IMG/VR virus record: IMGVR_UViG_3300012231_000025 | Coordinates: 1 to 38,690 of that record | Source: a virus | Taxonomy: Duplodnaviria > Caudoviricetes | DNA length: 38,690 bases | Reading direction: 5' to 3' (one strand) | Part shown: piece by piece, positions 3,701 through 29,685 of the stretch | Layout of the letters: each line of letters begins with the position of its first letter | How positions within the stretch are numbered: position 1 is the stretch's first letter | The notes under the pieces: generated by a model | What the model was told of the DNA's origin: nothing | Seen by the model: only the letters and a program-made list of their open reading frames with translations | The model's database searches: none | Position numbers and translations under genes: made by a program

Positions 3701-6700
3701 TTGTCGATGTTGCGCCCGATCTCCGCCAGCTCTTCCTTGGCGGTTGCGAGACGGGCCGCGTACGCAGCCGGGGAAACGTCCATAAGCATGTCCGTTAGAC
3801 CCATGATCCAGGCCCGCAACTGGCCCTCGCTCGGAATGGTCCCCACGCCGCCGACGGTCGGGGGAGCATGAGCGAGGCGGTCCCAATCGCTTCGCATGTC
3901 CGCGGGGGGCGTCATGTGTGCCGTACTCTGCCCAAAGCCGTCGACCTTGACCGCCACGCCGACCCCCCGGAAGGTCCCCAACGGGGTCCAGACGCCGATG
4001 CTGTTGCTTTTGGCGGACTCGAATAGAGCAGCCCCGGCCTCGCCCATCTTGTCGTACTCTTTCCCCCTCACGCTCATGGTGAAGGGCTTCGCGGGCGGCA
4101 GACCCGCGGCCCAATCGGCGATACGTTTCGCCGCCTTCAAGTCCTCGGCCGTCTTCTCGATGATCGCTTTGGTCCGCAGTTCCTTCTTGCGCAGGTCCAT
4201 CTGCGCGTCGCGGTGGTAGCGTAGTTGACCCTGGAGCGTACGCAGTTGTTGATCGGCTTTGGTCCATTCGAGCACGGTTTTGTTTTCGCTCGACTCCGCC
4301 ATCGCTAATTGGAATGACGCGAACCCGATGTCGACGTCCTGGATACGGTCGGCGTCCAAGCGCCCGGACAGGAACTCGCTGATGACCTTCTGCTTGGCGG
4401 CCAACAGGGAATACATGAACTCATCGCTGCTACCTTTGCTAACGTAGCGATACATCCGCACTTCCTGGGGCTTGGTGGGGTCCCCCCAGTTGATGTTGCC
4501 CTGGCGAATGGGGCGGCCCTCCATTTGAGTCAAGAGGGCCGGCGTCCAGGCGGGTTCCATTTGCTGCAAGGCAAGGACGCGCTCCTGCACGTTCACGCCG
4601 GTACCCATCTTGGCCATCGAACCGATGAGGATACGCAGATCCCCGCGGTTGACTTTCTCAAAAAGGGCCTGTTTCTGCTCATCCTTTTGGGCGTCATAGA
4701 TGGTTGCTATCTGATCTCGCGGGACGCCCGCCCCAACAATTTTTTCAATCAGAGCGGAGTAGAGCGCGAAGCCTACCTTGCTCCCCGGCGGCCCCTGGTT
4801 CACGAAAATCAACTGCGTATACCGATGCTTGTGCCCTTCTTTGTAGATCGCCGCCGCCCTCTCGGCCGTCGCGGCAATCTTGTTCCCCGGTTCTTCGGCG
4901 AGCCCTGGCAGGACGAGGCGCATGTCCAAGGCGGCCTTTTTTTCGTCGCTGATGATCGACAGCATAATGTCGTCGCCGGATTTAGGGCGCGGCTTGAGGT
5001 CTCTCACCCGCTGGGCAATGACCTTTCGATATTCAATCTGTGCGGGCGTCGCTTCCAGCACCACCAGCTCATAGGTGCGTTTGCCTCGGCTGTTCATCGC
5101 AAAGATGGGCATCGGCGATGAGCCGACACGCTTGGCTAAGGTTTCCGACACCGCTTCGTGGGCGACAAAGTGGGCGATCTCGTCCCACATCTGGTAGAGG
5201 GCGTGCAGGTTGAGGTACTCGCGCAAGCGGGTGACCATTTTGTATCGACCGGCCACACGTTCCAGGTCCGCGGCCGGCAGAGCGAACATACGCACCCAAT
5301 CGTCGAAGGAACTGATCCCGATCTCGCGGAGCTTTTCCGGCTGAAGGTATCTCTGAATCGCGTAAATCTCGCTGATGGAGTTGTCGATCGGCGTCCCCGT
5401 GGAGAACACCACGCCTCGCCCGTTCTGAAGTTTCTGAACGTAGCGGGCCTTCACATACAAGTCCGTGGTGATCTGGTTCCCCGCCGGATGACCCAACCCC
5501 CGGACGTTGTTCAGTTGGGTCTGAAATCCGAGGTTCTTAACCTTCTGGGACTCGTCGTACATGATCCAATCGAGCCCCAACTCCTCAAAGGTGAGCGTCG
5601 GCGTCCGGCGGATGTCCTCGATTCGTTCCTCCATGCGAGCCTGCAAGTTATCCCGCGCCTTCTCCATCTGTTTGACGCTTTTCTTGGAGGCTTTGTCCGA
5701 ATCTTCGCTCATGTCCGCGATGGACTCCTCCATCGCCTCGATCATTTCGTCGTAATAGCTCCGCAACGTGGCCTCGCCCACCGGGAGCATCGTGAATTGC
5801 TTATGCGGAATGATAAACACGGTGCGTTCCGCGGCGGCGACGCGGGCCAATGTCGCGGCCCGGTTCTTTTCCTGTAGGTCCGACGCCGACAGGGCAATGA
5901 AGTTTCCGCCCGGGTACAGGAGCCGGGCCTGCTTGATGAACTGATTCAGCGTCGCACGCTCGACCACGATGGCGACCTTGCGGGCCAAGCGCAGACGCAG
6001 GGTTTCCATCGCCGCCGCGGTCAGCATGAAGGTTTTGCCGCCGCCCACGGCCACGGCCAACAGGGTGTTGTTGGGAGACGCAATCGCCCGGTAGACCCCG
6101 TCTTTTTGGTGAGGGTCCAACTTGATCTGCGGATTCATCCCCGGAAATGTGAGGTGCGAGCCGTCCCACTTGCGCGGGGCCGTGTTGTTCATTTCCTCGT
6201 TGAACACACGTAGAACGTGCGGACCCCATTTTTTGTGGCTCCAGAGCCAGGTCTCGAAGTAGGCGTTGATCTCCGCCAGCTTCGCCTCCGCGGCCGCCGT
6301 CGCCTCGGGGTTCACCCGTTCTCGTTTCGTGTCGTCGGCGTCGGTGAATTTCTCGGTCACTCGGGGGCTCTTCATGGACAGCTTGGCCTTTATCAGCTCC
6401 ACAAAGTCCATGTCCTTCGTACCCCAAGTCTCCGTTGCGGCGGCGCCCGTCGCGGTCCACGACGGGGCGGAAACGAACCAACGGCCCGTCGCGTTCCCCC
6501 GCCGCACGGATATGGACCTGCGGACCTTCTCCCCCAGGATGCTCACCATGAAGTCTTCGATGGTCTCCGCGGGGATCCACGGGGCGCCGATGACCGGCGC
6601 GATACGCGACGGGGGCTTGTCTTCCGGCTGGACGGCCTTCAGCGCCTCCACGTTGCGCTTGTAGCGGTCCTCCATCTTGGCCAGGCCCTCCGCGTCGCGC

Positions 6701-9700
6701 AGCTTGGCCCTAACATTCCCGGAGAGGTAATCGGAGGCCAGCACCAACTCCTCGGCGGGCATCTCGTACACCAAGGACTCCTCGATCAGGCGGGTTTTGG
6801 CCGTCGCTTCCTCGACGCCGAGCAATTCCGCGATACGAGAAAGGTCCACGCGGTTGCTCTCGTCCAAGGCGATGGACAGGGCATCGCTGGTGTTCTCGGC
6901 GCTACTGGGCGGCCGATACGGTTCGAGCATCCTGCGGGTGAAGATGTCGCCCTTTGTCCCGGTCTTGGTCGCGCGGTCGTAGTTCTCCACCGAACCCAGC
7001 AAAGAGAAGGTCAAGGGGTCGCCGGCCAAAAGCTTGCCGTTCGCGGTGGCGTGAATGGGCGTGATGCCATCCTTCCCGAGGCGGTCGTAAATCTCGTTGA
7101 TCTTTTTTTGCAGCGCGGGCAGTCGTTCATCGCCCTTGGGATCGACCGAAGCCCGCAACACTTCCAGAACGCCGTCACGAAGCTCCACCAGACCTTTGAC
7201 CCGCTGCACGGCTTTAGGCCCGTGCTGTTCCAGCAGAGATCGCTCTACGTTGCCGGAAGGCTCACCCCTGTTCTGCGCTCGCCGCAAGGCGCCATCCGAG
7301 CCGACGAACAGGGCTCCCGCCGGAAGATCATCCGGCGAGGGGACCATCTCCAGAGGGTCGATGCGGTCGGTCCTGCCTCCTTCCACCTTGCCAAAGAGGT
7401 CCCTCGGCAATTTGCTGAGGGCGATCTCAAGATCGCGGGCCAAGTCGAAGCCCTCGGGAGCCTCCACGATCGTATTCGTCGGTGCGTCTTCACTGGTGTA
7501 TTGGGACCCCGCTTTGATGGTGCCGAGGACCATTTCCGGGTGTTTCTGGAAATACTCATTGACCCATCGGTCTTTCAGCGCTTCATAGGGTTTGCTGTGC
7601 AGCCACGCCTCCCCGCCGGGGGCTTCACCTTCGCCCCGTTTCCGCAGAAACAGAATGTCCGCGGTCACCTTTGTGCCGGGCAGTGAATCCTCGTTGAGTC
7701 GCACCGCACCGATGAGGTCCGCACGCTCGCCAAGGTAGGCGCGGACTTTCTCGGACAACTTGTCCATCGTGCCTTTGGTGGTGATGAACGCCACGATCCC
7801 GCCGGGGTGCACCAGGTCCAGCCCGCGAACGAAAAAATAATCGTGGATGAACTCGCGCAGCCCCTTGGGGTAGCGCTTGTCCTTGATGAACAACTGACCG
7901 AATGGGACGTTGGAGATCGCCACGTCGAAGTAATCTTTGGGCAACGCCGCCTCTTCGAACGGGCTGTGCCGCACGTCCGACGCTGGATACAACGCGGCCG
8001 CGATCCCGGCGCTAATGGTGTCTTTCTCAATAGCCACGCGGCGGCTCGCGTCGGCCATGTCCAAGGGCTGCAAACCCAGGAAGTGACCAACGCCGGCGGA
8101 GGTTTCAAGCACGGCGCCACCCAAAAACCCCATTCGTCGCAAGGCTTCCCACATGCCTTGGACGATTTCCGGGGGCGTGTACATTGCGTTCAGCGTTGAA
8201 CTTCGGGCCGCGGCGTATTCCTCGTCGGTGAGCAGCTCGCCAAGTTCTTCGCCCTCCCGACTCCACTCGTTTTTCAGCGTTCCGTAGAGACTCCGAAACG
8301 CTTCGCTCACCGAACCCCAACCCTGATAGCGCACCAGGACGGCTTTCTCGTCTTCCGTCGCGGCGCGGTTTTCCTCTTGAATTTTCTTGAGCGTGCGAAT
8401 GGCTTCTACGTTGCGCTTGAAGATGCTCTTCTTCCCGCTGACGAAAAGCGACGTGGGGTCGGTGATGGAGTAGTCGCTCAACCCGCTTCGTTGGACCGTG
8501 TGGGTGACCTGGACCTCCGGTCTTTCCGGTTCTTCCGGTGGTTCCTTTTTCTCGGCGGGGATTTTTTTTGAGGGGGGTTCCGCTTTTTCCTCTTTCGCTT
8601 GGATAAACGCCTCTTCGGCCTGGAGTTGCCTCTGGTTGGCTTCGTTGAATTTTCCTTTGGCCGCCAAAAAGTAGTCGTTGTCGATGTCGCCCTTGCGGTA
8701 TCGCGCCGCCGTCTGATGGTACTCTTTGCTGGCCGCCGCATAAGCGGCGCGGGCCGCGTCGTATGTTTCTTGCGCCGACTTGGAAACTACTCCGGCAGTT
8801 GGAGGTACTGCCCCGCCACGATCTCGTACGCCTGCTCCGGCTTCATGCCGCTCTCCACCAGGCGGGCGATCGACGCCTCCGCCGCCGCTTGGCGCTCGAG
8901 GGCGTACAGGTGCAGGCGCTCCGCTTTCTCCAGGCGGTTGTACGTCTTTGGGCGCTCTTCCTTCAGGTAGCGAAGGGCCTCCCACCCGAGGTCGCCCAGG
9001 CGTTGGCTCGCCTCCTTGTCGCTCTGCGGTGGGTTCGGGCTCCCGTTCTGCACGTGGTTTTGGTTGTTCTGTTGGCCTAACATGGGGTGTCTCTCCCTTT
9101 ATTATACCACCTATTGGGGCGATAGGTTCTATCTTTGGCGGTTTTTCTTCGCGGGGCGGCTCCGGGACGGGGGGCAGAGCAAGCGTCGTTTTACGAATGG
9201 CCCTCTGCTCCGCTTCTTTCAGCAGCGGCAGGCCGAGTTTGTTCTCCTGCACGTACTCGTCGAGGGCCATCAGGAGGGTAATGTCGTCTTGGTATCTTCC
9301 GGGATTGTTAGTGAGGTACTTGCGGGTTGCTTCGAGCCCCTTGGGGAGCGTGCGCCCGGTGATAGCCTCATACAAAGTCCTCGTTTTTTTATTATCAGGC
9401 CACAGCGATTGGGAATCGCCCCCCTTGAGCAGGGCCCGCCGCAAGTCCCAAATGTAAGCCTGCTTGTAGCCCTCGACTTCCGCCGTCGTCGGCGGCCGTC
9501 CTTTCACGTTGCGCAGCAGCAACCAGGTCAGGCGATCCACGATACGCTTGCTTCGATCGACCTCGGCGTTGCTCTTGTCGATCACGCCGGTCAGAGACGC
9601 CGGAGGCGCCGGAGTAGTGAGTTCGGGCCGGACCGGCACCCCCGGCTGTTGTGGTTCGGGACGTTTACCAGCCTCAATCGCATCGCGGACGGCGGCGAGT

Positions 9701-11823
9701 TCCGCCGGGTCCAGCTCGTCGAGGTGTCGTTTGCCCGTCAACCGCTCGGTGAAGGCCATGAAGGCCGTGTCGTTATCCCACGGGATGCCTTCCTGGTCGG
9801 CGAGCAGGTGAATCGCGGCAACGGCGGGTGCTACTTCTTCTTCAGCCGCTTCGATTTCCGGCCCTCGCTCAAGGCCATCACCGCCCGTTCCTGCGCCCCC
9901 CCGCTGGCCCGCAAGCCCAGCCTTCGGCATTTCGACGGTTTGGAGTTTCGGTTCTTGTTCCGATAATGGTTCTTCTTCTGTTGCAGTCAAACTTGTAGGT
10001 TTCAATCCTGCACCCACAACAGGTGGTGTTTCACGTGGAACTTGCCCAGCTTCACGGACGGGTATGTGTACTCCCGGCGGGACTTCGCCTTCCGGCACGC
10101 CATGACCCGGCGGCGGTATCTCGGCTTCGCCAGGCTTCAGCGGCGCTCCGGGCGGTTGCCGGCGTTCAAACGGCTTGGCCTCCTCGGGCATGAGGGCGGA
10201 TACCCCAGCGGTGACCGTTCCGGGGATCAGAAATCCCATGAACTCCGCCTGTAGTTGCTTCCAGCCGGGCCAAGGTTCACCCGCCTTCGGCATCTGCCAG
10301 ATGGGGTTGCCTTCCAGCCCTTGCAGCCGCGGATCATCGCCGCCCGCGGCGATGACTTCTTTCGCCGCGGCCTCCATCAGCTCGCCGATGCGCTCCTCTC
10401 CTATTTCCCCGAACACCCCGTTATAACCCGCCTTGTTGGTGAGCATTTGCATGGCGGAACTGATGGTCAGGTATTTGTTAGGGAAACGCGTAACAAGCTC
10501 CGTCGCGATCGCCGTTCGGAGTTTGCCGGCCCACTCGACGGCCTTCAGAGAGGGAAGCACGACTCGCTCGGCGCCTGCGGCCAATCGACCGAGTTTCCCG
10601 CCGATGATCCCCACCGACGCCCCCGTGAACTCGCTCACCACCTGGATGCCCTGGTGAACCGCAGAATCGCGTAGGGCCTCCAGGAGCGGTTGGGGCGGGG
10701 CCGTCATAGCGTATTCGAGCGCCGCGTCGTCTCCGGGTCTTAGCTCGTATCCTGGGACCTGTCTTTGCAGCGTCTCTACGGCCGTCCGCGTCGCCCAACT
10801 GGGCAGACCGCGTTCCGCCGTTTTGACTGCCGCGTGGACCGCGAGTCGGGGAAGGGTCTTTTCGGAAGCCGCTTCGGCGACCTTCATGGCCGCCTTGCTC
10901 ACCGCCGAGGACACGGTCTTACCGACCAGCTTCTCCGCTCCCTTGGCCATGAGCCGGGTAGGTCCTCCGCCAGTCGCATATTCCAGACCGACGGGGATCG
11001 ACTGCCCCAAGATGTCGACGCCCGTGCCCGCGACGGTCTTTCCGCGGCTCTCCCGCGCCTCTGTCTCTTTCGCTTTGGTCAGCAGCTCGAAGTCGTCGAT
11101 GGTTCCTGTTCCCGCGTCCATCCGGCTCGCGGCGGCGACCAGTTGGTAAGCGTCGATGCCCAGCGCCAAGGTCGAAACGTAGGGCAGTTTTCCGACCAAT
11201 CCACGCCAACTCTTGAATTCCCGCGCCACGACTTCGGGTGCCGTCTCCGGTGGGGGCAACCCATTCAAAGGTGGCAGTTGGTAGCGACGGCGGAAAATGT
11301 TTAGAAACCGCAGCTTCGCGTTGTCGGTGAGAAGGTTGTTGAAGTCGGGATGCTCGCGGGCCTCAAGCTCAGCCTGGGCGCCGAAGGCCCGCTCGGCCAT
11401 TTGCTGTTCGGGCGTCGGGCCGCCGCCGAACGCCTTTGATAGGCTTCCGGCGATGCTCTTGCCCACCCGCTGTATGAGGCCGGGGGGCTTTTCGAGGGGG
11501 CCGACGGGCGGGGCGGGACCAGTCGCCGCCTCCGCTGTTGAAACCGCCGCGGCGGGCGGCCACTGAGACACAATCTCCGGCGAGGGCGTAGCTTCTTCGG
11601 CCGGTGGCACGGTCGGCATAGCCGTCCCGCCCCGCATAAAGCCCGTCAGAATGTCGTCGTAGGTTTTGGGAGCCGACTGAACAGGAGCCTCGAAGCGCTG
11701 CAACAAGGCATCGTATGGCCCTGGCGTGGCTACGGGCGGCGTGGCGAACTTCGTCAGAAGGGCGTCGTACCCATTGCCGTCGGCGAAGGCGTCGCGGGTG
11801 AGTTCCTTGATCGGTTCGCCCAC
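715..11823 (-). CDS. Giant (3702 aa) polyvalent ejection-type protein with DarB-like N6-adenine DNA methyltransferase and SNF2/SF2 helicase domains
   Basis: MTase motifs YTPPEIV, VLETSAGVG (motif I) and ISNVPFG (motif IV). Helicase motifs AVGGGKT, DESQ, STGTPIDNS, MGTGVNVQ and QMEGRPIRQGN. Last gene of the ejection-protein block; C-terminal helical/hydrophobic region resembles LPD38-type ends. Confidence 0.88.
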   Translation of the reverse strand: MGEPIKELTRDAFADGNGYDALLTKFATPPVATPGPYDALLQRFEAPVQSAPKTYDDILTGFMRGGTAMPTVPPAEEATPSPEIVSQWPPAAAVSTAEAATGPAPPVGPLEKPPGLIQRVGKSIAGSLSKAFGGGPTPEQQMAERAFGAQAELEAREHPDFNNLLTDNAKLRFLNIFRRRYQLPPLNGLPPPETAPEVVAREFKSWRGLVGKLPYVSTLALGIDAYQLVAAASRMDAGTGTIDDFELLTKAKETEARESRGKTVAGTGVDILGQSIPVGLEYATGGGPTRLMAKGAEKLVGKTVSSAVSKAAMKVAEAASEKTLPRLAVHAAVKTAERGLPSWATRTAVETLQRQVPGYELRPGDDAALEYAMTAPPQPLLEALRDSAVHQGIQVVSEFTGASVGIIGGKLGRLAAGAERVVLPSLKAVEWAGKLRTAIATELVTRFPNKYLTISSAMQMLTNKAGYNGVFGEIGEERIGELMEAAAKEVIAAGGDDPRLQGLEGNPIWQMPKAGEPWPGWKQLQAEFMGFLIPGTVTAGVSALMPEEAKPFERRQPPGAPLKPGEAEIPPPGHGVPEGEVPPGVHIPVREAGQVPRETPPVVGAGLKPTSLTATEEEPLSEQEPKLQTVEMPKAGLAGQRGGAGTGGDGLERGPEIEAAEEEVAPAVAAIHLLADQEGIPWDNDTAFMAFTERLTGKRHLDELDPAELAAVRDAIEAGKRPEPQQPGVPVRPELTTPAPPASLTGVIDKSNAEVDRSKRIVDRLTWLLLRNVKGRPPTTAEVEGYKQAYIWDLRRALLKGGDSQSLWPDNKKTRTLYEAITGRTLPKGLEATRKYLTNNPGRYQDDITLLMALDEYVQENKLGLPLLKEAEQRAIRKTTLALPPVPEPPREEKPPKIEPIAPIGGIIKGETPHVRPTEQPKPRAEREPEPTAERQGGEPTPGRPRVGGPSLPEGRAPKDVQPPGESGAPAPVRPRAPSGGGGVDRPPGGERHEAGAGVRDRGGAVPPTAGVVSKSAQETYDAARAAYAAASKEYHQTAARYRKGDIDNDYFLAAKGKFNEANQRQLQAEEAFIQAKEEKAEPPSKKIPAEKKEPPEEPERPEVQVTHTVQRSGLSDYSITDPTSLFVSGKKSIFKRNVEAIRTLKKIQEENRAATEDEKAVLVRYQGWGSVSEAFRSLYGTLKNEWSREGEELGELLTDEEYAAARSSTLNAMYTPPEIVQGMWEALRRMGFLGGAVLETSAGVGHFLGLQPLDMADASRRVAIEKDTISAGIAAALYPASDVRHSPFEEAALPKDYFDVAISNVPFGQLFIKDKRYPKGLREFIHDYFFVRGLDLVHPGGIVAFITTKGTMDKLSEKVRAYLGERADLIGAVRLNEDSLPGTKVTADILFLRKRGEGEAPGGEAWLHSKPYEALKDRWVNEYFQKHPEMVLGTIKAGSQYTSEDAPTNTIVEAPEGFDLARDLEIALSKLPRDLFGKVEGGRTDRIDPLEMVPSPDDLPAGALFVGSDGALRRAQNRGEPSGNVERSLLEQHGPKAVQRVKGLVELRDGVLEVLRASVDPKGDERLPALQKKINEIYDRLGKDGITPIHATANGKLLAGDPLTFSLLGSVENYDRATKTGTKGDIFTRRMLEPYRPPSSAENTSDALSIALDESNRVDLSRIAELLGVEEATAKTRLIEESLVYEMPAEELVLASDYLSGNVRAKLRDAEGLAKMEDRYKRNVEALKAVQPEDKPPSRIAPVIGAPWIPAETIEDFMVSILGEKVRRSISVRRGNATGRWFVSAPSWTATGAAATETWGTKDMDFVELIKAKLSMKSPRVTEKFTDADDTKRERVNPEATAAAEAKLAEINAYFETWLWSHKKWGPHVLRVFNEEMNNTAPRKWDGSHLTFPGMNPQIKLDPHQKDGVYRAIASPNNTLLAVAVGGGKTFMLTAAAMETLRLRLARKVAIVVERATLNQFIKQARLLYPGGNFIALSASDLQEKNRAATLARVAAAERTVFIIPHKQFTMLPVGEATLRSYYDEMIEAMEESIADMSEDSDKASKKSVKQMEKARDNLQARMEERIEDIRRTPTLTFEELGLDWIMYDESQKVKNLGFQTQLNNVRGLGHPAGNQITTDLYVKARYVQKLQNGRGVVFSTGTPIDNSISEIYAIQRYLQPEKLREIGISSFDDWVRMFALPAADLERVAGRYKMVTRLREYLNLHALYQMWDEIAHFVAHEAVSETLAKRVGSSPMPIFAMNSRGKRTYELVVLEATPAQIEYRKVIAQRVRDLKPRPKSGDDIMLSIISDEKKAALDMRLVLPGLAEEPGNKIAATAERAAAIYKEGHKHRYTQLIFVNQGPPGSKVGFALYSALIEKIVGAGVPRDQIATIYDAQKDEQKQALFEKVNRGDLRILIGSMAKMGTGVNVQERVLALQQMEPAWTPALLTQMEGRPIRQGNINWGDPTKPQEVRMYRYVSKGSSDEFMYSLLAAKQKVISEFLSGRLDADRIQDVDIGFASFQLAMAESSENKTVLEWTKADQQLRTLQGQLRYHRDAQMDLRKKELRTKAIIEKTAEDLKAAKRIADWAAGLPPAKPFTMSVRGKEYDKMGEAGAALFESAKSNSIGVWTPLGTFRGVGVAVKVDGFGQSTAHMTPPADMRSDWDRLAHAPPTVGGVGTIPSEGQLRAWIMGLTDMLMDVSPAAYAARLATAKEELAEIGRNIDKPFGKQKELDQLAAKVRKLTDEIAAVADQANKAAEGGAAEDMGDQEGEEEDEDGEGPRKPEPGGGGISPGFGKREESLLPPNMTPEYRAWVTENWGGNVPLFGMGAMGAGNPALTGLRGWYVRSWEKWVSKPWFNRKTAKGQAISNAISGSLWDLGWNMSQATRNEFERAKGASAVAAEYRANLDERLNRHVGEVREKGIGAKWPETAWKEIKSVAKAVLGGGHNRPENMPPDMRAVWKEHFASWVKKQSGRGVSREEYEASIEARLAAVQERIDKIHDTTIGHAMPKEGWDVYALTEHALIEEVARGKRPYEDISPAMREWLGNAKSILDELTDEILSTPWLLKMAQLGGLENWKEIVEARKASGLIYLQRLYNYHQKKRHPVRSMVWAEHKLLGPRLALGMFKAKRADEKLWTVRKANLQERQFDSPDAAKAFADQEIERNQARYGEMVKERVKIIPPLEDEQVEWLGPVKDMRILLGSTITSLMKNVAFGKLFHYLNETEAISEAEYNDLDEGEQMRYRQLPDTPKLWDLANKYVPAGVEDAINEMDLVFTGFLSQYWRSALNAFRSIVVLTSTTTWINQVLGQTFTWMLAGLNPLTHKAVFIEAAKRLSNGVADPTVKNLLGMNALRGGWDRNGVGAKASEFISAPHGQVVGGLIDLYLWAKKAGHELGKGYGFIDEVSIVASWIRDREVLGLPEEIATENLRWFQNYNRLGQAAKWLRVLPFGDPFAAFSDQAIKITIKGMREHPGRVLAYYALPGVIHLTSRLLLGVTDDEMKILNTSRSRDAQGPFGWLQGWNDRYFQPILPLPRDKQGRLHTMDMRYLYWLGNEMRVATGPGGIGIPHIMRQPLFGPLAELWPNVTAYGGREIMDRNDPAIVQLWDAAKHVAWGSIPAPKLATRSPFRIYEAATGRSGENLIKVLLKEVFGINILPQYASREEAFRLIKEAYGVAGGHRWERLLTFYERYAHPKSAPITERGLRQSIASDERKAEEP
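8787..9083 (-). CDS. Nested out-of-frame 98-aa TnpV-like protein inside the giant gene
   Basis: Globular, helical-looking translation LRYLKEERPKTYNRLEKAERLHLY...LVESGMKPEQAYEIV..QYLQLPE resembles TnpV-family proteins. Preceded by TGgTATAAT and GGGAG. The host frame is P/G/R-rich over the same stretch. Confidence 0.7.
   Translation of the reverse strand: MLGQQNNQNHVQNGSPNPPQSDKEASQRLGDLGWEALRYLKEERPKTYNRLEKAERLHLYALERQAAAEASIARLVESGMKPEQAYEIVAGQYLQLPE
9101..9127 (-). promoter_or_regulatory. Intragenic extended -10 promoter (TGgTATAAT) with adjacent inverted repeat ACCTAT-N7-ATAGGT
   Basis: Perfect TGnTATAAT at 9109-9101 on the minus strand, 17 nt upstream of ATG 9083; 6-bp inverted repeat at 9109-9114/9122-9127; no good -35. 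Confidence 0.6.
10027..10042. other. parS-like ParB-binding palindrome
   Basis: TGTTTCACGTGGAACT matches 15/16 of the chromosomal parS consensus TGTTTCACGTGNAACA; encodes VPRET in the giant protein. Confidence 0.6.
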
Positions 11824-20005: not shown

Positions 20006-21244
20006 CTAGAACACGACCGGCACTTCGAGGTCGGTCAACTTCCACTGGGTATTCGGAGCGTCGCACACCGGCTGCATGAACCGGTACCAGGCCGCCTCGT
20101 AGGCGTGCCGATCAGGAATCCGCGAAAGGATTGCCCCGTCCTTGTTCATCCAGTCGCCTTCGTTGTTCTGGTACAGCTCCCAGTGCGAGGTATCCAGGCC
20201 GATCATCACCGCCGGGTCGATGTGCTTGTCGCGCACGATGGGGATGTCGTTGTGCATGATCGCTTCCGCCCAACCGTTCAGCTTCTTGGTGGCGTTGTCG
20301 ATCCGCCGGGCCGCGATGAGGTCGTTCATCAGCTTACGATGCACGCCGTAGCCGCAAAGGATCAGGTTGGTCTCGCCGCTGCTGTGCTCGTCCACGAAGT
20401 CCACCGCCTCCTGGATCAGTGGGAAGGTGCACTCTCGGGGGACACCGCCGTTGGCGAAGACGTTCCCCTGCCAGAACTCGTTGCCTTGCAGGGTGCGGTC
20501 GATGCCGCCGTAGAACCCCAAGGCGGCCGGCGGATTGCTCGCGGAAATGACCGCGTCCAACCCGAAAATCGCGTCGTTGTACGAACCCGCCCGGTAGACG
20601 TTGTAAGTCGTCGGGGCGGCGTTGATCGCGGTGAAGTCGATGAGGGCCGCGGGAGACGTGAGGGTGATCGTCTTGGTCAGCTTGTTTACGCTGATCTCCG
20701 CGTTGACCACGCCAGCGCCGGTGGCCCCGGTGGAGGCCAACAAGACGTCGACCTTCATCCCGTCCACCAAACCGCGCACGCTGTCCACCACCAACGTCGT
20801 GCTCGACGCCGACGACGCAATGGCCGCGATCTTCGCGGACCCGTCGCCGAACATATCGAAGTTCAGGTAGTGGCGGTGTTGCTTGATGAAGTTGTTGATC
20901 TCTAGCTCGTAGGGGCGAATGATCGCCGCGGACGGCACATCATCCGCACCTTCTACGTGCGGCCCGTCAATGAGGATCCGCCCGTAGAGCCGTTTGTAGT
21001 TAAAGATCGCATTCTTGACCTTCTGGTGTGACGCCGGCGGGAGGATGCCCGTCGAACTCCACCCCAACCCGCCGCTCTGCCCCTTGTGCAGGGTGACGGT
21101 GATGTTCTTACCTTCCGCGTAGTCCTGGCTGTTGCGGGTAAGGTACTGGAGTAAAATGGACTTGAGATTGAACTGGACCCGCATCCGCGGCTGGTATCGT
21201 ACGCGGAGCAAGTCTTCCTGTGTGGTGCGGTTGGCGCCTGCCAT
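20006..21244 (-). CDS. Major capsid protein (HK97 fold), 412 aa
   Basis: Motifs DMFGDGS, GLDAVI, YGGIDR...FWQGNV and IPIVRDKH; strong AAGGAG RBS; follows the scaffold gene. Confidence 0.88.
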   Translation of the reverse strand: MAGANRTTQEDLLRVRYQPRMRVQFNLKSILLQYLTRNSQDYAEGKNITVTLHKGQSGGLGWSSTGILPPASHQKVKNAIFNYKRLYGRILIDGPHVEGADDVPSAAIIRPYELEINNFIKQHRHYLNFDMFGDGSAKIAAIASSASSTTLVVDSVRGLVDGMKVDVLLASTGATGAGVVNAEISVNKLTKTITLTSPAALIDFTAINAAPTTYNVYRAGSYNDAIFGLDAVISASNPPAALGFYGGIDRTLQGNEFWQGNVFANGGVPRECTFPLIQEAVDFVDEHSSGETNLILCGYGVHRKLMNDLIAARRIDNATKKLNGWAEAIMHNDIPIVRDKHIDPAVMIGLDTSHWELYQNNEGDWMNKDGAILSRIPDRHAYEAAWYRFMQPVCDAPNTQWKLTDLEVPVVF

Positions 21245-22134: not shown

Positions 22135-24498
22135 CTAGGATACCCCCGCCGGGCTTCCAGGTGCAAGTGGCACCCCTGGCAAAGGTCCATTCATGGGGGG
22201 CCTTATTCCTATTGGCGCAATAGGTGGTGTTCCACGCATTCCCGGCGGTGGACCCATCGCCCCCGGTCCCATCATCATCCCCGGCGGACCAGTGCTCATT
22301 GGTGGAGTCGGCATGGGCGCTGGCATCCCCTGCGGCGGCTCCGGGGGGGCTAGGCCGCGAAGGTATTCCGCGGTCCGTTCCTTGATGACTTCGGGGTACA
22401 TCACCTTCAAGGCCCGATTAAAGAGGTGCTCCTGCAAATGCACCAGGAAACCAACGCCCACTTGCTTGTCTTTGGCGGCGGCCTCTTTGTATCGCGCCGT
22501 GGTGGTGAGCATTTCGTGTTCGCGGATGTGGACCGCGTCATTGTCGCCCCATGCACAGCGGATTTTGCTGCGCTCCTTGGCGTCACCCATGAGTAGTTCG
22601 TTCTCAATGGCCGCGTTGGTGCGGTGCTCGGATTCCTCATCGGTCTGCGCGGGCACTTGCTCGTTGATCCAACGCATGACCATGCGGCGATCGTCCTCCC
22701 GTTCCGCGGAGAGGTAGCCCATCTTGGTCAACCCCTCGACCTTGGCGATCACGTCCTCCATGCTGGCCTGATCCGAAATCATGGCCCGGACGTTGGCCGC
22801 GTCGGGGCCGACCGGCGGGCGGCTGATGAGCGTGCGCCCCTTGAAGGTGAGGACTTCGGGGGCCGATCGCTCGCCGGTGATGAGGATGGAGCGCTCCTCC
22901 GTGTAATACTGCCAGATGAGGGCGAGCATTTGAGCGCCCAGACGTTCCGCCCCGGCCTGGATGAGTAGCTTCGTAGCCGTGCGGCCGCGCTGGTCGCCCT
23001 CGATCATCAGTTGGGCGTGCTTGCCGGACTGCGTTCCCGGTTCCTTGGACCCGGCCGTCGAGCGATGCACCCGACCCACGTCCTCCATGTCCCGGACGTT
23101 CATTTCGTCGAGGGCACCCATGTAGCTCGGCGGATTGGGGTACTCAAAAGCCTTGACCTTGTTGATCCCGCCTTCCTTCATGTTGATGACCTTCGGACCG
23201 TTGCTGAAGGCTTCCTCCGGCAGACCCGACCCGCTCTCATTCATGATCCGCGGGTCGATGCTCATGTGCAGGTGCGCGTGAATCAAGGAGCGCTGCTTGT
23301 TGCGGGCGCGTTGCAGACCCATGAGGTCGGCGATCGTCGATACGGGGCGGAAGGCCTCCGGCTCCGCGTGCTCTCGGAAAGTGGTCAACGGGATCTGCCC
23401 GTGGACGTACGGGTTCGCAACTTTCTTAATCACCTTCTGCCCCGCAACGATCCCGCAAAAACCTTTGGGGGCGGATGGCGATCGCGGACGCCACATTTCG
23501 TGCACCAGAACCTCGGTCGATTCGGTCATGCCGTTGACGTACTCGCCGACGCGGCCAATGGCGTTCCCCGCGGCGTAGTTATATCCCCGGTGCTGTTGCA
23601 AGGTCTGGCTGCTGTCCGCTTCCAGACCGCGCGCCGCTTCCTTGTAGCGTTCGCGCATGTACTCGATGGATCGGAACTTGGACACGATGATCCAAGGGGC
23701 CTCCTCGGCCAGGTGACAGTGCTCCGGCTCGGTCACGTCGAAGCCGCTCAGAAAATCAACGGCCAGGTCGCCGTCCGCAAGGTCCAAGCCGTCGCCGCTC
23801 AGCTTCACCCGATCGGCCTTGACCTTCCGCTTTTTGCCCACTAACTCCCGTAGTCGTTGGGTCCACTTGCCGCGGGTCTTTTCGTCGTCGTCTTCGCCCT
23901 CTTCGCGCATCATGTCGGCGTCGAAAAACGAGGTCGGACCCGCGAACGGGTCCCAAGTACACTTGCCCCACACGATCCCGGTCGTGAACATCATCCAGAA
24001 GGCTTCGAGTAGCTTGACTTGCCCGCTGGGGCTGCACGCCCCCCAGAAATGCCTCAACAGCTTGGCCTGGGCCTTGGCCGAGGTGACGTCGTCGTTCTCC
24101 CGGGTTTGCGGGTACACCTCCCAGGACATTGCCCGACCGAGGATCAGGCCGATGGAGTCGAGAAGGAACCCCCTCAACTTGTTGATGATGATGGGGTCGC
24201 GGCACTGAAGGGGAAGGTCGGTCAGTTCCTGCGGCTCAAGGGCCATCCGCTCGTCGGACCAAATGTAGTTCTGGTAGCCGCGGACCCAGGCGAGTTGTTC
24301 AGACGCGGTTTTTTCCCACTCGTAGCGGCGGGTCTTCCCGGCCTCGTACTGATTGGTGACGAAGGCCAGCAGGTCGCTGTCATCCATCGCGGCCGGGTTG
24401 GTCCAGTCGAGGCGGTGGACGGCCAGCGCACCGCCGCCGCCGGAGTCACCGGCCTGGCGGCGGATGGTGGGTTCATCGGGTACGGGGTTCTTGACCAT
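22135..24498 (-). CDS. Portal protein (P22-like), 787 aa
   Basis: IIINKLR, P.T...DDV..AK, NPY.HG.IP, LQRARN, SG and DNDAVHIREH motifs; P/M/G-rich tail; located between TerL and scaffold. Confidence 0.88.
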   Translation of the reverse strand: MVKNPVPDEPTIRRQAGDSGGGGALAVHRLDWTNPAAMDDSDLLAFVTNQYEAGKTRRYEWEKTASEQLAWVRGYQNYIWSDERMALEPQELTDLPLQCRDPIIINKLRGFLLDSIGLILGRAMSWEVYPQTRENDDVTSAKAQAKLLRHFWGACSPSGQVKLLEAFWMMFTTGIVWGKCTWDPFAGPTSFFDADMMREEGEDDDEKTRGKWTQRLRELVGKKRKVKADRVKLSGDGLDLADGDLAVDFLSGFDVTEPEHCHLAEEAPWIIVSKFRSIEYMRERYKEAARGLEADSSQTLQQHRGYNYAAGNAIGRVGEYVNGMTESTEVLVHEMWRPRSPSAPKGFCGIVAGQKVIKKVANPYVHGQIPLTTFREHAEPEAFRPVSTIADLMGLQRARNKQRSLIHAHLHMSIDPRIMNESGSGLPEEAFSNGPKVINMKEGGINKVKAFEYPNPPSYMGALDEMNVRDMEDVGRVHRSTAGSKEPGTQSGKHAQLMIEGDQRGRTATKLLIQAGAERLGAQMLALIWQYYTEERSILITGERSAPEVLTFKGRTLISRPPVGPDAANVRAMISDQASMEDVIAKVEGLTKMGYLSAEREDDRRMVMRWINEQVPAQTDEESEHRTNAAIENELLMGDAKERSKIRCAWGDNDAVHIREHEMLTTTARYKEAAAKDKQVGVGFLVHLQEHLFNRALKVMYPEVIKERTAEYLRGLAPPEPPQGMPAPMPTPPMSTGPPGMMMGPGAMGPPPGMRGTPPIAPIGIRPPMNGPLPGVPLAPGSPAGVS

Positions 24499-24955: not shown

Positions 24956-25762
24956 CTAACCCGGGCTCGCCGGTTGCCCCCACCAGTAGCGTCTCGTCCA
25001 CACGGTCGCAAATACCTTCCCCGCCGTGTACGCCGCGGCCAGGTCCAATCCCAGGTCGAAACCGCTCGCGGTGTCCAGGTAGGGCAACCACCGGCAGTGA
25101 CGAACGACGGTTTTCGTGTCCGTGGGCAATGTGATCGTGGTGTACGCCTCGGTCGATCGCAGAGCCACGTTGGCATCAGGACACGTGTACAGGGCCGCCG
25201 CCAAGGTTCCCGGCGCCGTGTTCGGGTACACCAACACGTTGCTGATGTCCCCGCCGAAGGCGGCACTGGGCAGAAGCTCAAATTTACTGCCCGCGCCGCT
25301 GATAATCGCCTCCGTGAAGGTCCCGTTGGCCGACCTCGCCGTTCCCGCCGTATCGCCCACCGTCGGGGTGATGGTCCCCGCACCCGTGTAATTGGTGATG
25401 GTGAAGGTGACGTTGTAGGTGATCGTCGGGGTCACGATTACCCCGCCCGCGGTAGCCAACGACAGGACATCGCCGGGCGTAAGCCGCGCCGTGCCATTGC
25501 CGGTGAGTTTCCATAAAGCCGTGAGCACCCACGGTTGCGGAGTCGGCTGGGGAACAAGAAACGTCCCATTCCCCACGGCGTTGCGGTCGATGAGCAGGCG
25601 CAACTCCGTGCCGAACGTCGGTTGACGAAGGTTCCCGACCCCGGAACGATTCAGAAGGACTGGGATCGGCCCCGGGGCCGCTAAAAACTGCTCGGTGTCG
25701 GAAAGCAGAAGACGGTCGTGGTTTTTGACCCACTGTTCGGCCTTGTGCGGGGCGACGTTCAT
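24956..25762 (-). CDS. Thr/Gly-rich beta-sandwich protein (268 aa), possible virion accessory with a CBM-like insert
   Basis: VGNGTF...W...W...TYNVTFTITNY...GTFTEAI...ISNV pattern of galactose-binding-like folds; ATGA overlap with TerL; AAGGAAGGA RBS. Confidence 0.5.
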   Translation of the reverse strand: MNVAPHKAEQWVKNHDRLLLSDTEQFLAAPGPIPVLLNRSGVGNLRQPTFGTELRLLIDRNAVGNGTFLVPQPTPQPWVLTALWKLTGNGTARLTPGDVLSLATAGGVIVTPTITYNVTFTITNYTGAGTITPTVGDTAGTARSANGTFTEAIISGAGSKFELLPSAAFGGDISNVLVYPNTAPGTLAAALYTCPDANVALRSTEAYTTITLPTDTKTVVRHCRWLPYLDTASGFDLGLDLAAAYTAGKVFATVWTRRYWWGQPASPG

Positions 25763-27483
25763 CGTTTTTTCCTTCCTTGGGCGGCGAGCAGACGACGGGC
25801 ATAGTGGGCGAGTGAGCGCTCTTCCAGCCCCGTGGTGAACCGAGACTTCCGTGTCTCGTGCAGAACCTTCATAGCCAACTGCTCCCGGGTGATCGGGATG
25901 CTTTTTTCAAGGTCGATGGAGCCGTCGATCAGCGACGACACCCACCGGATGCCTTCCAACTTCTCGGTCTTGGGCTTGTCTGTCAATAGCTTGCCGGTGG
26001 TTTCTTTGCGCTGGATGATCTTCTGACCCCGGCAGGGGATGTCGTTGTCGCAGTAGGTCTTAATCAGCAACGACCAGCTCCGGTCGGCGACCGTACCCTC
26101 GTAAGCCTCGGAAATCGGACCCCGCCACCAGACCTCGCGGCGGTCCTCCGGGGCTTTTTCCCAGCCGCTCATGCGGTGGATTTGCTCGATTTCGGTCATC
26201 ACGTTCCAGCCTTTTTCCACCGAATCGACGATGTACAGCTCCCGGTAGACGTACACCAGGCCGGTGAGGTTGAAGGTGGTGACCGCGTACCGCACGGCGT
26301 CGGGACAGTGGTCGTCTTGTTTCAATGGCTCGTCGGGCCGGTCCTCGTCCCAGCGGTAGGCGAAAAACTCCCGAATCGTGTTGGGACAGGCCATTGAGAC
26401 CAGGAAGCCGGGCGGACCCGGGACGTGGGCGATCCACAGGCACGCGAAAGCCGACGTGCTCTGGCCCCAGTCAATCGCACGATACCGCTCCGTGTTCCGC
26501 GGGCAGTCAATGTCGCCGACGCAGTGGTCGCGGCGGAACAGGGGATAGATTCGACCGCTCGCATACTCCCATGCCTCCTGCGGCGTGTCGGGGTGTTCCT
26601 GCTTCATGCGCACGGGGGAAATCGCCCCCAGGCGTTCCGACTCCCGCGCATACCAGGCGGCGTCCCGCCCCGGGCGCTTGCTCCAATGGATGAAGACCGG
26701 CTTGAAGCCGTTGGGTCCGGTCCCGTCGGGGCGCAGGGCTTCCCCGAACTCCCCGTAGGAGCCCTGCCAAGATTCGTAGAAATACCCCTGCGGCCCGGCG
26801 CTGCTCGACAACGCCACAATCTGACCCTTGGCCGACTCGACGCCCGGCTGAGTCGCGGCCATCGTGTCGGCCAGCTCCGGGATGCGGCTCGCCTCATCGA
26901 GGATCGCAAGGTCCACGGTCATCGAACGGGACGCCTTCTCACCGCCCACAATGGCGCGGAGCACGATTGCATTGCCGTCCTCCTCGTAGGTCAGCTCCTG
27001 CTTGTTGTCGGTGCTGATGGTTTTCTTAAACCAGATGGGCAGCCGCGCCTGGATGTACTTCACCCGCTTGACGAAGTCCTTCGCGTAGTCCTTCAGTTGG
27101 TTGACCACGATGATGTTGAGCGTGCGGCCGTAAATAATTCGCCACACCACGAACGCGGCCAACAGCCAGGTCAGCCCCAGTTGCCGACCCTTCAGAAGAA
27201 CGAGCCAGGTCCCCGCGACGAGGTCCGGCACCCGCTCGCGTTGCGAGTCCCAGAGGTCCATCTTGACGTCGCGCTTGGTTTCGCGGTCCCAGATCACGAC
27301 CCACTTGTCGGAGAAGCGTTCGAAGCCGGCGGCGCCCTCCCGCGGGTGACAGGCCCAGTATTCGGCTTCCGTTTCGTCGGTCAGCAGGCGCTCTTCGTGC
27401 GCCCGCACCTGCCCGAGAAGGGTTTCCGCGGTGGACCCGATGAGGGTCCGTACCTGGCTAAGCGTCTGGTTGAGGGGGGGCAT
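25759..27483 (-). CDS. terL: Terminase large subunit (574 aa) with rearranged nuclease domain
   Basis: Walker A LKGRQLGLT, Walker B ILDEA, motif C SSA; nuclease motifs IDWG, DDHCPDAVRY, YVYRELY and VAD. Confidence 0.9.
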   Translation of the reverse strand: MPPLNQTLSQVRTLIGSTAETLLGQVRAHEERLLTDETEAEYWACHPREGAAGFERFSDKWVVIWDRETKRDVKMDLWDSQRERVPDLVAGTWLVLLKGRQLGLTWLLAAFVVWRIIYGRTLNIIVVNQLKDYAKDFVKRVKYIQARLPIWFKKTISTDNKQELTYEEDGNAIVLRAIVGGEKASRSMTVDLAILDEASRIPELADTMAATQPGVESAKGQIVALSSSAGPQGYFYESWQGSYGEFGEALRPDGTGPNGFKPVFIHWSKRPGRDAAWYARESERLGAISPVRMKQEHPDTPQEAWEYASGRIYPLFRRDHCVGDIDCPRNTERYRAIDWGQSTSAFACLWIAHVPGPPGFLVSMACPNTIREFFAYRWDEDRPDEPLKQDDHCPDAVRYAVTTFNLTGLVYVYRELYIVDSVEKGWNVMTEIEQIHRMSGWEKAPEDRREVWWRGPISEAYEGTVADRSWSLLIKTYCDNDIPCRGQKIIQRKETTGKLLTDKPKTEKLEGIRWVSSLIDGSIDLEKSIPITREQLAMKVLHETRKSRFTTGLEERSLAHYARRLLAAQGRKKR

Positions 27484-27800: not shown

Positions 27801-28049
27801 TCAGCGATCCTCCCCCAAGTCGCCCAGGGGAACCTGGTCATAATGGTACTTCAGAAACCAGCCTAATTCCTGGTGCACACCCAGGCACGTCGTCATGTCG
27901 CCCCGCTTGCACATCGCCGTTCCGGGGTCCACGCGGTGCACACCCAAAATCACCGTGCCGTAACGCTTCTCCATCTCGTCGGCGATCTGTTCCAACGTCG
28001 CCAGTTGCAGCTCGACCCGACCGTCGTGTGCAGGCTGTTCCTTGGTCAT
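27801..28049 (-). CDS. Hypothetical protein (82 aa), paralogue of 12942-13235
   Basis: ATGA overlap with the upstream gene; LQLATLEQIADEMEKRYGTVIL motif. Confidence 0.6.
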   Translation of the reverse strand: MTKEQPAHDGRVELQLATLEQIADEMEKRYGTVILGVHRVDPGTAMCKRGDMTTCLGVHQELGWFLKYHYDQVPLGDLGEDR

Positions 28050-28534
28050 GTGGTCGCCGCCGGTTTGTCCGGCATCCCTTCGCGGCTCATGGCAAGGTTG
28101 TCGATGGTGCGACCGCTGACCTTCTCGGCCTTCAGCTCCCCGCGTAGGCGAAGCAAGCGGTTGACGCCGTCGACCGCCATCGCCGACGCTCCCAGCGTGC
28201 TCTCAGCGACGTAGCGGGCCACCCGGTAGCTCTCCGCGCCGTGAACTCCCCGTTGCAGGCGAGTCACGACCTTCGGGTCCGGGTGCCCCGTGTCCAACTG
28301 TTCTTGCAAGATGGCCGCGGTGCATTTGTCGAACATCCCAACGCTTAGCGGATAGACCGGCGTGTGCGGATTATCGCCCACGGCCCGCGACTCCTCGACC
28401 ACCCCGCGGTACAGCTTCGCCAGGTCCATGCCTGGAAACTCGATCAACGCGCGGACGTTTTTCTCGATCTGCTCCGCCCGCGGCGGACGTGCCGGCGGTT
28501 TCCGTGCTCCGCGTTTTTTCCCTTTCCCTCTCAT
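28046..28534 (-). CDS. Basic helical protein (162 aa), candidate terminase small subunit
   Basis: ATGA overlaps at both ends; basic N-terminus; size and position upstream of TerL fit, but no diagnostic motif was recognised. Confidence 0.35.
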   Translation of the reverse strand: MRGKGKKRGARKPPARPPRAEQIEKNVRALIEFPGMDLAKLYRGVVEESRAVGDNPHTPVYPLSVGMFDKCTAAILQEQLDTGHPDPKVVTRLQRGVHGAESYRVARYVAESTLGASAMAVDGVNRLLRLRGELKAEKVSGRTIDNLAMSREGMPDKPAATT

Positions 28535-28863
28535 GGTTGTGGCCACTTCCAGTAGTTCTCAATCCACTGTTCTTCGGTTTCTGACAAATACTCAGCATCC
28601 GGCGGCCCCAACGGACCCTTGCCCCACTTCCGACGATGCGCCTGGTCCTCAATCGCTAACCCTTCAACGACGGCAAGATGCTGCTCCCACCCAGCCTCTA
28701 CCGTTGGGCGCTTGCACATGATTTGTGGCGGCACCACCGCATTATTCTTCATCCAATCATACACCGTGGTCACAAGGCCCCCATCGGTCACCACCGTCAG
28801 CGTACCAACGCAGGTTCGCCACAGTTCGCCGCTCCTCGGCTTTTTCCAACTCGCATCAGGCAT
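28531..28863 (-). CDS. Hypothetical protein (110 aa)
   Basis: Fits operon packing; Trp-rich globular translation. Confidence 0.55.
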   Translation of the reverse strand: MPDASWKKPRSGELWRTCVGTLTVVTDGGLVTTVYDWMKNNAVVPPQIMCKRPTVEAGWEQHLAVVEGLAIEDQAHRRKWGKGPLGPPDAEYLSETEEQWIENYWKWPQP

Positions 28864-29220: not shown

Positions 29221-29685
29221 ATGAGTCGTTATACGCTCAACATGGCCCCGGGGCAACTGCTCCCCAAAAATAAGTACGGCGTCGCCCCCAAGGATCTCCG
29301 CACGTACAACGGCCAGGTGTACGCTTCCAAGGCTGAAGCCAACCGGGCCTTCATCCTGGATCGCCTCTTGCGGGCCATCGGTCCGGGAGCCGTCGAACGC
29401 TGGGAACGCCAGCCGCGGTTTCAACTTGGAACGCCGCTCAACGTCTACGTGGCCGATTTCCTGGTCTACGAAACGGACGGCAGCGTACACGCCGAAGACG
29501 TCAAGGGGTTCCGTACCCCGGCTTTCAACAAGAACGTGCGGCTTTGGAGGGCCTACGGCCCGATGCCGCTTTGGATACTCACGCCATCCGGCGCCGGACG
29601 CTGGAACGTGGAAATCATCGACGGGGCTGAGGCCCCCGGAAAGGATTCTGAACATGGGCATCACCCGACAACCGACCGTCATTGA
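29221..29685 (+). CDS. DUF1064-like PD-(D/E)XK endonuclease (154 aa)
   Basis: NKYG...YASKAEA.R...RQPRFQL...YVADFLV...EDVKG motif series. Confidence 0.8.
   Translation: MSRYTLNMAPGQLLPKNKYGVAPKDLRTYNGQVYASKAEANRAFILDRLLRAIGPGAVERWERQPRFQLGTPLNVYVADFLVYETDGSVHAEDVKGFRTPAFNKNVRLWRAYGPMPLWILTPSGAGRWNVEIIDGAEAPGKDSEHGHHPTTDRH
29228..29256 (-). promoter_or_regulatory. Candidate sigma70-type promoter for the morphogenesis operon
   Basis: TTGCCC-17-TATAAC; the cgTATAACg context is identical to the promoter at 32570-32597. Confidence 0.4.

Follow-up and report, generated by a model that had tools for sequence, protein, structure and literature searches.

Sequence evidence for a non-circularly permuted nuclease domain in a clade of phage large terminases

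Results

The window analysed here is the whole 38,690-nucleotide stretch of DNA from a virus (Duplodnaviria; Caudoviricetes) that makes up positions 1 to 38,690 of IMG/VR record IMGVR_UViG_3300012231_000025. Its minus strand carries, at 25759-27483, a gene for a 574-residue large terminase (TerL; hereafter P0001). The assignment follows from matches to Terminase_6N (E 1.9e-8; 34.7 bits against a cut-off of 22) and phrog_2 (E 3e-30), and from Foldseek, for which T4 gp17 and D6E TerL were the best matches to the whole protein. T4 gp17 was also recovered with phmmer (E 2.6e-6). Terminase_6N, phmmer and Foldseek all indicate an N-terminal ASCE ATPase with Walker A and Walker B motifs. Profile and phmmer matches place this domain at residues ~70-308 (26560-27276, minus strand), within which we take LKGRQLGLT (27169-27195) to be Walker A and LAILDE (26893-26910) to be Walker B.

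Downstream of the TerL gene lie a P22-like portal gene (22135-24498, minus strand; PF16510, E 3e-11; phrog_156, E 1.5e-21), a major capsid gene (20006-21244, minus strand; phrog_14242, E 1.4e-45) and an SU10-type adaptor. TerL is encoded alongside the portal and capsid genes in a single copy: P0001 was the only TerL match in the window's 86%-complete virus record, and a single match was found in all five virus records searched, four of which are at least 90% complete. Upstream of TerL, a 166-residue helical-looking ORF without a Pfam or PHROG match (28046-28546, minus strand) occupies a possible small terminase position. A nuclease-like gene (DUF1064/phrog_190; 29221-29685) also precedes the packaging genes but is encoded on the plus strand. 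The end of the P22-like virion module is occupied by a gene for a 3702-residue DarB-like protein with methyltransferase and SNF2 helicase parts (715-11823, minus strand; phrog_10089, 1318 bits).

The nuclease domain of P0001 can be divided into three blocks, all encoded on the minus strand and in one reading frame. Block A (residues 309-354; 26422-26559) holds a linker strand, beta1 with the catalytic D338 (26470-26472) and beta2. The nuclease start at residues 332-354 reads YRAIDWG..ACLWIAH, with DWG at residues 338-340. The moved segment, block C (residues 355-406; 26266-26421), reads PGPPG-FLVSMACPNTIREFFAYRW..KQDDHCPDAVRYAVTT and comprises beta6, a helix, the terminase beta-hairpin and the catalytic helix, with catalytic residues H392 (26308-26310) and D395 (26299-26301). 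Its motifs, LVS..CPNTIRE..Y.W..DDH..DA.RY, fall between strand 2 and VYVYRE. Block B (residues 407-520; 25924-26265) follows with TGLVYVYRELY..TVADRS..EGIRWVSSLIDG and contains beta3, a helix, a clade-specific insert, beta4 with the catalytic D467 (26083-26085), beta5 and, last, the GI..V..L helix. A basic tail (residues 521-574; 25762-25923, minus strand) is helical in the AlphaFold model. A sequence-only reading of this DNA had described DWG followed by the C-terminal block and then by VYRE, DRS and GI..V. This order is correct in P0001, and the junctions placed by that reading at about 26265 and 26410 are close to the actual ones at 26265/6 and 26421/2.

Block profiles were mapped with hhalign onto a 120-member sister family of canonical order (P0228). 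Block A aligned to P0228 residues 272-313 (probability 97), block B to 320-396 (probability 97) and block C to 396-451, the canonical C-terminus (probability 98, E 2e-14). The three blocks tile a single canonical domain without overlap, in the order A-C-B here versus A-B-C there. With phmmer, residues 361-404 matched the C-terminal residues 370-417 of D6E TerL. No second block C was found in the tail at residues 521-574 (hhalign against the canonical family, probability 0.1), nor any further DH..D.RY-type motif in 187 intein-free permuted proteins. Because block A stays first, A-C-B is not a rotation of A-B-C, which sets it apart from a circular permutation. At the level of sequence, these results confirm a true non-circular permutation of the canonical nuclease. 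The earlier proposal of a natural permutation of this kind is borne out by the block tiling and by the structural alignment ranges given below.

The same reading anticipated two out-of-order matches to terminase profiles. Such a pair was obtained when the whole permuted domain was aligned to the canonical family with hhalign, whereas P0001 had no match to Terminase_3C or Terminase_6C at E 0.01. Terminase_3C matched 21 of 62 relatives, and TIGR01547 (PBSX type) matched P0001 in block C alone, far under the cut-off. The colinear order of the Terminase_3C and TIGR01547 families (strands 1-5, helix, strand 6, hairpin, catalytic helix) does not hold for P0001. It is a TerL on all features tested, yet lies outside the colinear nuclease families.

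A search with the nuclease region returned 62 matches from ENA, JGI, Logan and NCBI assemblies, every one in A-C-B order. A profile search of 1.84 billion representatives gave, among the best 150, 138 permuted proteins, 10 full-length proteins in which the block is terminal, and 2 truncated ones; 1,241 representatives reach E 1e-30, so the permuted count is a lower bound. Across all proteins examined, 193 of 234 had the A-C-B order (a lower bound for the clade), a count that takes in 16 proteins whose block C is interrupted by an insert and 2 that were assigned visually; the same-order homologs sought on the strength of the earlier reading were thus found. A strict best-hit order test was passed by 192 of the 193; in the remaining protein, P0223, block B is matched partially and likewise comes after C. 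Among the other 41, 19 were judged by eye (17 with the acidic helix at the end, 2 truncated) and 22 had no match to blocks A and C. Canonical controls gave A-B-C in 62/62 targets with all three blocks scored (of 212 targets), and in the sister family (n = 120) block C lay 79-134 residues after block A in the 76 members with both matches, with no call for 44.

Permuted relatives share as little as 24% identity with P0001. Junction spacing is nearly constant throughout, with a D395-V412 span of 18 residues in 162 of 187 permuted proteins. The 16 proteins with an insert in block C (P0134, P0139-P0141, P0143, P0144, P0152-P0154 and others) form a subclade carrying ~15 extra residues after a conserved Cys. 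Among cultured phages, none of 50,697 records covered 80% of the permuted nuclease, and the 17 matches were to block C alone.

AlphaFold modelled the whole of P0001 at pLDDT 89.4 and residues 305-530 (150 sequences) at pLDDT 94.4 and pTM 0.91, with both junctions above 95. By structure ranking and DSSP string, the predicted model has an RNase H-like fold with an extended sheet and a beta-hairpin. Terminases filled the first 13 ranks when the model was compared with 48,161 chains by a sequential structure aligner (VIA). The best match was D6E (Z 9.7, rmsd 2.6, 129 of 226 residues aligned), a modest score that is expected because the aligner is sequential. We checked the ends of the aligned ranges against residue numbers for four terminases. 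The D6E range (233-364) ends ahead of its block-C equivalent (370-417), the SPP1 range (237-362) ahead of H400/D403, the G20c range (256-392) ahead of H427/D429 and the T4 range (360-510) ahead of D542. With Foldseek, TM-scores for the nuclease model were low (best 0.47), which is to be expected because the method depends on order. A viral structure library returned only distant terminases (≤ 21% identity among the 50 matches listed), and the clusters retrieved from the ESM Atlas, some of terminase C-domains and others unnamed, are uninformative on block order.

Co-variation across 187 permuted nucleases places the moved helix on strands 1 and 2 (336-400, z 8.5; 351-400, z 12), beside the post-strand-1 loop (344-391, z 6.8) and beside the GI..V helix (398-511, z 6.5), and strand 6 by strand 3 (361-411, z 9.4). 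The pairs 350-414, 348-416 and 353-408 show strands 2 and 3 in register on either side of the 52 inserted residues. Of the 20 strongest pairs joining block C to other parts of the domain, 9 are found again in a canonical alignment of 192 rows (background 7.3%), and 11 are under z 3 there. We predict that the domain adopts the usual RNase H-like shape, with block C in its usual place. Convergence of D338, D467 and D395 in one site is supported indirectly by co-variation, model confidence and conservation. Ahead of strand 4, residues ~437-460 form a clade-specific hairpin (SGW..W.pg..gE) that co-varies strongly (414-459, 350-459) and is missing from shorter prophage members. A clade-specific basic loop at residues 489-502 precedes the GI..V helix.

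A strict junction pattern applied to 185,579 species genomes matched 2 stretches, both titled Planctomycetota. The sensitive host search was confined to 401 Planctomycetota genomes. At the protein level it gave 31 matches, 15 of which were examined: four were permuted genes (G001, G068, G315 and G093) and 11 were canonical. At the DNA level it gave 10 weak matches, one being the G315 prophage. Relatives occur as prophages in five Planctomycetota genomes, and one protein (P0039) is labelled Planctomycetes. Bacterial genes adjoin the phage module in G001 and G002, and the G068 and G315 prophages lie on contigs of 2.0 and 2.8 Mb. The prophages at G001:C112 (~43-78 kb), G068:C2 (~1.345-1.387 Mb) and G315:C1 (~2.011-2.054 Mb) belong to one family, which has DNA methyltransferases and a repressor and gives weak Mu-like matches (to a transposase at E 0.005 and to a Gam-like protein at E 0.0009); the G002 prophage has a tyrosine integrase instead. 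Directly after the G068 prophage, a second, different phage module apparently begins (G068:C2 ~1.387-1.400 Mb; L154), as judged by eye from ORF starts.

A P22-like portal (phrog_156) accompanies the permuted TerL in 13 of the 21 virus loci examined, and the prophage head module has a phrog_145 portal in 4/4 tested and a phrog_247 capsid. Because the permuted TerL is combined with two kinds of head module, these data do not support a packaging mode particular to the clade, nor the distinct mode suggested in the sequence-only reading. Virus records are classed as linear or provirus, which is uninformative on packaging mode. In four loci (L091, L092, L117 and L119) no portal was seen among the next long ORFs, and the permuted TerL is followed by glycosyltransferase-like, radical SAM, methyltransferase or tail genes.

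Origin and activity of the permuted nuclease

We consider it very probable that P0001 is a TerL of order A-C-B whose nuclease would fold normally and likely cut DNA by a two-metal mechanism, the order having arisen in what was likely a single, near-neutral and old event. In the predicted structure, block C would leave the strand-2/3 turn, place strand 6, the hairpin and the catalytic helix normally, and return to strand 3. Metal A would be held by D338 and D395 and metal B by D338 and D467, with H392 assisting. This arrangement is modelled on the metal-binding set D294/D429/D347 of G20c, as given in the accessible text of PMC5389553, with the SPP1 G2P nuclease (PMC2685612, accessible text) as second analogue for the two-metal site.

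The last helix of terminases is described as antiparallel to strand 1 (PMC3985635, available portion), from which we infer that its end lies near the strand-2/3 turn. With strand 6 beginning beside strand 3, short linkers would then be enough. The linkers of block C in P0001 are PGPPG and NLTG, and their spans are nearly fixed in the clade. In the canonical fold the two ends of block C already adjoin the strand-2/3 turn, and for this reason the move was likely near-neutral. The route we prefer, with modest conviction, is partial gene duplication followed by reciprocal loss of pieces, which would leave a functional site at every step and yield a change that is hard to reverse. Duplication intermediates were absent from the 187 intein-free permuted proteins and from the tail profile, and no junction repeats or microhomology were found.

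A possible, though doubtful, alternative to intragenic duplication is that recombination of two terminase genes inserted a fragment to give the present order. The nearest canonical nucleases, of GGNRSGKS type, score a median of 55 bits on block A and 48 on block C with about 0 on the ATPase, and the nearest ATPases have distant nucleases (median bits 16 on A, 22 on C and 126 on the ATPase), but these scores are biased because the two comparison sets come from different searches. On the nuclease tree, the sister group of the clade consists of five GGNRSGKS-type loci (SH-aLRT 81). However, a single GGNRSGKS family gives high scores with all three blocks, a pattern consistent with the swap of a whole domain in an event distinct from the permutation, and the lack of repeats at the block junctions also speaks against an inserted fragment. 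That the nearest nucleases and the nearest ATPases differ in type hints at such a swap, in sets that were gathered differently. Duplication followed by loss remains our preferred route.

It seems unlikely that the rewiring was itself selected, such that a hairpin and catalytic helix tied into the strand-2/3 loop alter gating, packaging mode or host sensing. The moved block does contain the hairpin proposed as nuclease gate (PMC2685612, accessible text), the order persists to 24% identity with the tight junction lengths noted above, and some Avs2 and Avs3 sensors contact the nuclease domain (PMC13601566, accessible text). However, the co-variation contact map matches the canonical one, as judged by the recurring block C pairs, and the gene is found alongside two head modules and in both integrase-bearing and weakly Mu-like prophages. 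EcAvs2 and Upx chiefly read the ATPase according to the same source, and a neutral, hard-to-undo change would persist as well. We are equally sceptical that, in this widespread uncultured clade (with some Planctomycetota prophages), the re-threaded nuclease alters the time of cutting or the view that host terminase sensors have of it. A near-neutral move accounts for the order in our preferred reading.

We think it very improbable that the nuclease is inactive or purely structural and that another gene cuts the DNA. The DUF1064/phrog_190 gene at 29221-29685 does provide the window with a second nuclease-like gene. Against this, D338 is kept in 187/187 permuted nucleases, D467 in 182/187 and D395 in 179/187 (with H or D at 392 in 185/187), upholding the earlier claim that the acidic residues are retained. 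All three Asp, which map onto canonical D303, D359 and D443, occur together in 175/187. The dN/dS of block C was 0.04-0.25 in five of five DNA pairs, the distant ones near saturation, and was under the ATPase value in four of the five. By these substitution rates, block C is under purifying selection.

Inteins placed in the catalytic motif also argue against an inactive nuclease. An intein-like insert separates DH. from the next CD motif in 6 of 193 permuted proteins (P0118, P0131, P0135, P0149, P0184 and P0203), and 5 of the 6 have a Pfam intein or Hint domain. Inteins usually adjoin invariant residues, and in a mycobacteriophage survey all TerL inteins were in the ATPase, unlike the site between DH. 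and CD here (PMC5050341, accessible text). The minus-strand gene at L088:2731-5127 has an intein inside this motif, and P0135 carries a further intein, with LAGLIDADG, in strand 2. On this evidence, the permuted nuclease likely cuts DNA.

Repeated origin of the permutation is a shade less credible still. After 13 fragments were dropped and close relatives thinned, FastTree on the ATPase alone placed 143/143 permuted proteins together (support 1.0), apart from 39 others. Of the quick IQ-TREE ATPase trees built from three thinnings, one recovered a single clade (SH-aLRT 99); the other two split the permuted proteins into two groups and would require two changes. However, a constrained single-clade ATPase tree was 18.3 lnL better (p-AU 0.70; one thinning tested), and a partitioned tree of the three nuclease blocks grouped 69/69 permuted proteins against 45 canonical rows (SH-aLRT 99.7). 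The nuclease-block tree intermixes both ATPase groups of permuted proteins, and the nearly uniform junction spacing across the clade likewise weighs against repetition. We therefore favour a single origin from these sequence trees. The idea that the order marks a terminase clade agrees with the FastTree ATPase, constrained IQ-TREE and nuclease-block groupings.

An assembly artefact or chance motif resemblance can be dismissed for practical purposes: the sole contig across the gene may be the source sample, but the order is common to 193 proteins from independent assemblies, which argues against misassembly, and to prophages on 2.0 and 2.8 Mb contigs, and the E-value of 2e-14 between block C and the canonical C-terminus speaks against chance. 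That contig, from Logan, spans the gene with zero differences and was not counted as independent; the argument rests on homologs. The window's own record (L099) and L108, which has the same block scores, were left out of the support.

Discussion

As judged from sequence, the TerL permutation is real and conserved, probably has a single origin and is probably functional. If the nuclease still cuts, this is a rare natural re-ordering of an essential enzyme: the permutation is non-circular, crosses the active site of an RNase H-like protein and has become fixed in a deep clade. Permuted TerL would offer a natural test of the hairpin-gate model because the hairpin is no longer close to a free C-terminus. 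For a phage clade with poor scores on standard profiles, the block order could serve as an almost irreversible marker. Colinear TerL alignments, as used for phage trees and packaging predictions, would mis-align permuted proteins. The G068 and G315 prophages, on multi-megabase contigs, point to possible experimental hosts.

A 2026 review describes solved terminase nuclease domains, from podoviruses to herpesviruses, as practically indistinguishable, and its accessible text has no word beginning with 'permut' (PMC13595956). Provisionally, no permuted TerL nuclease is described in the accessible text of the literature covered (including PMC7617512, PMC7824862, PMC10359639 and 10.1101/2023.12.19.572443), which lies largely outside subscription journals. 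Where 'permut' appears in the displayed text of terminase papers, it refers to P22 DNA, methyltransferases or a statistical test.

The predicted fold is like that of the solved terminases D6E (5OE8), P22 (4DKW), SPP1 G2P (2WC9), HK97, G20c, P74-26 and T4 gp17, which rank first. By fold position, D338, D467, H392 and D395 of P0001 correspond to D266, D321, H400 and D403 of SPP1 and to D294, D347, H427 and D429 of G20c. In contrast, strand 6, the hairpin and the catalytic helix lie between strands 2 and 3 in P0001 but are C-terminal in the solved terminases. P0001 also differs from them by an extra insert of ~20-35 residues before strand 4 and by the basic tail after the GI..V..L helix. The uncultured P0228 family shares a KxRQxG-type ATPase with the permuted clade (median 126 bits), and the GGNRSGKS-type loci (including L011, L016 and L026) have the most similar nuclease blocks; both are canonical, in the order A-B-C.

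Within the RNase H-like superfamily, the strand-2/3 loop is reported to tolerate helices (RNases H2 and H3), and a reversed last helix and migrated carboxylates in YqgF and Tex are also known (PMC3985635). These are insertions or single-residue shifts; the available portion of that survey describes no move of the catalytic helix in the chain and has no word beginning with 'permut'. Non-circular permutations of proteins are rarer than circular ones, according to the accessible text of PMC10085705. The closest parallel to the permuted TerL is the major capsid protein of BPP-1, likewise an essential phage protein, whose HK97 fold is non-circularly permuted: the N-terminal element is fixed and the next two are interchanged (PMC3863775, accessible text). 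That case concerns a capsid fold and not an enzyme, whereas the swap in P0001 crosses the active site.
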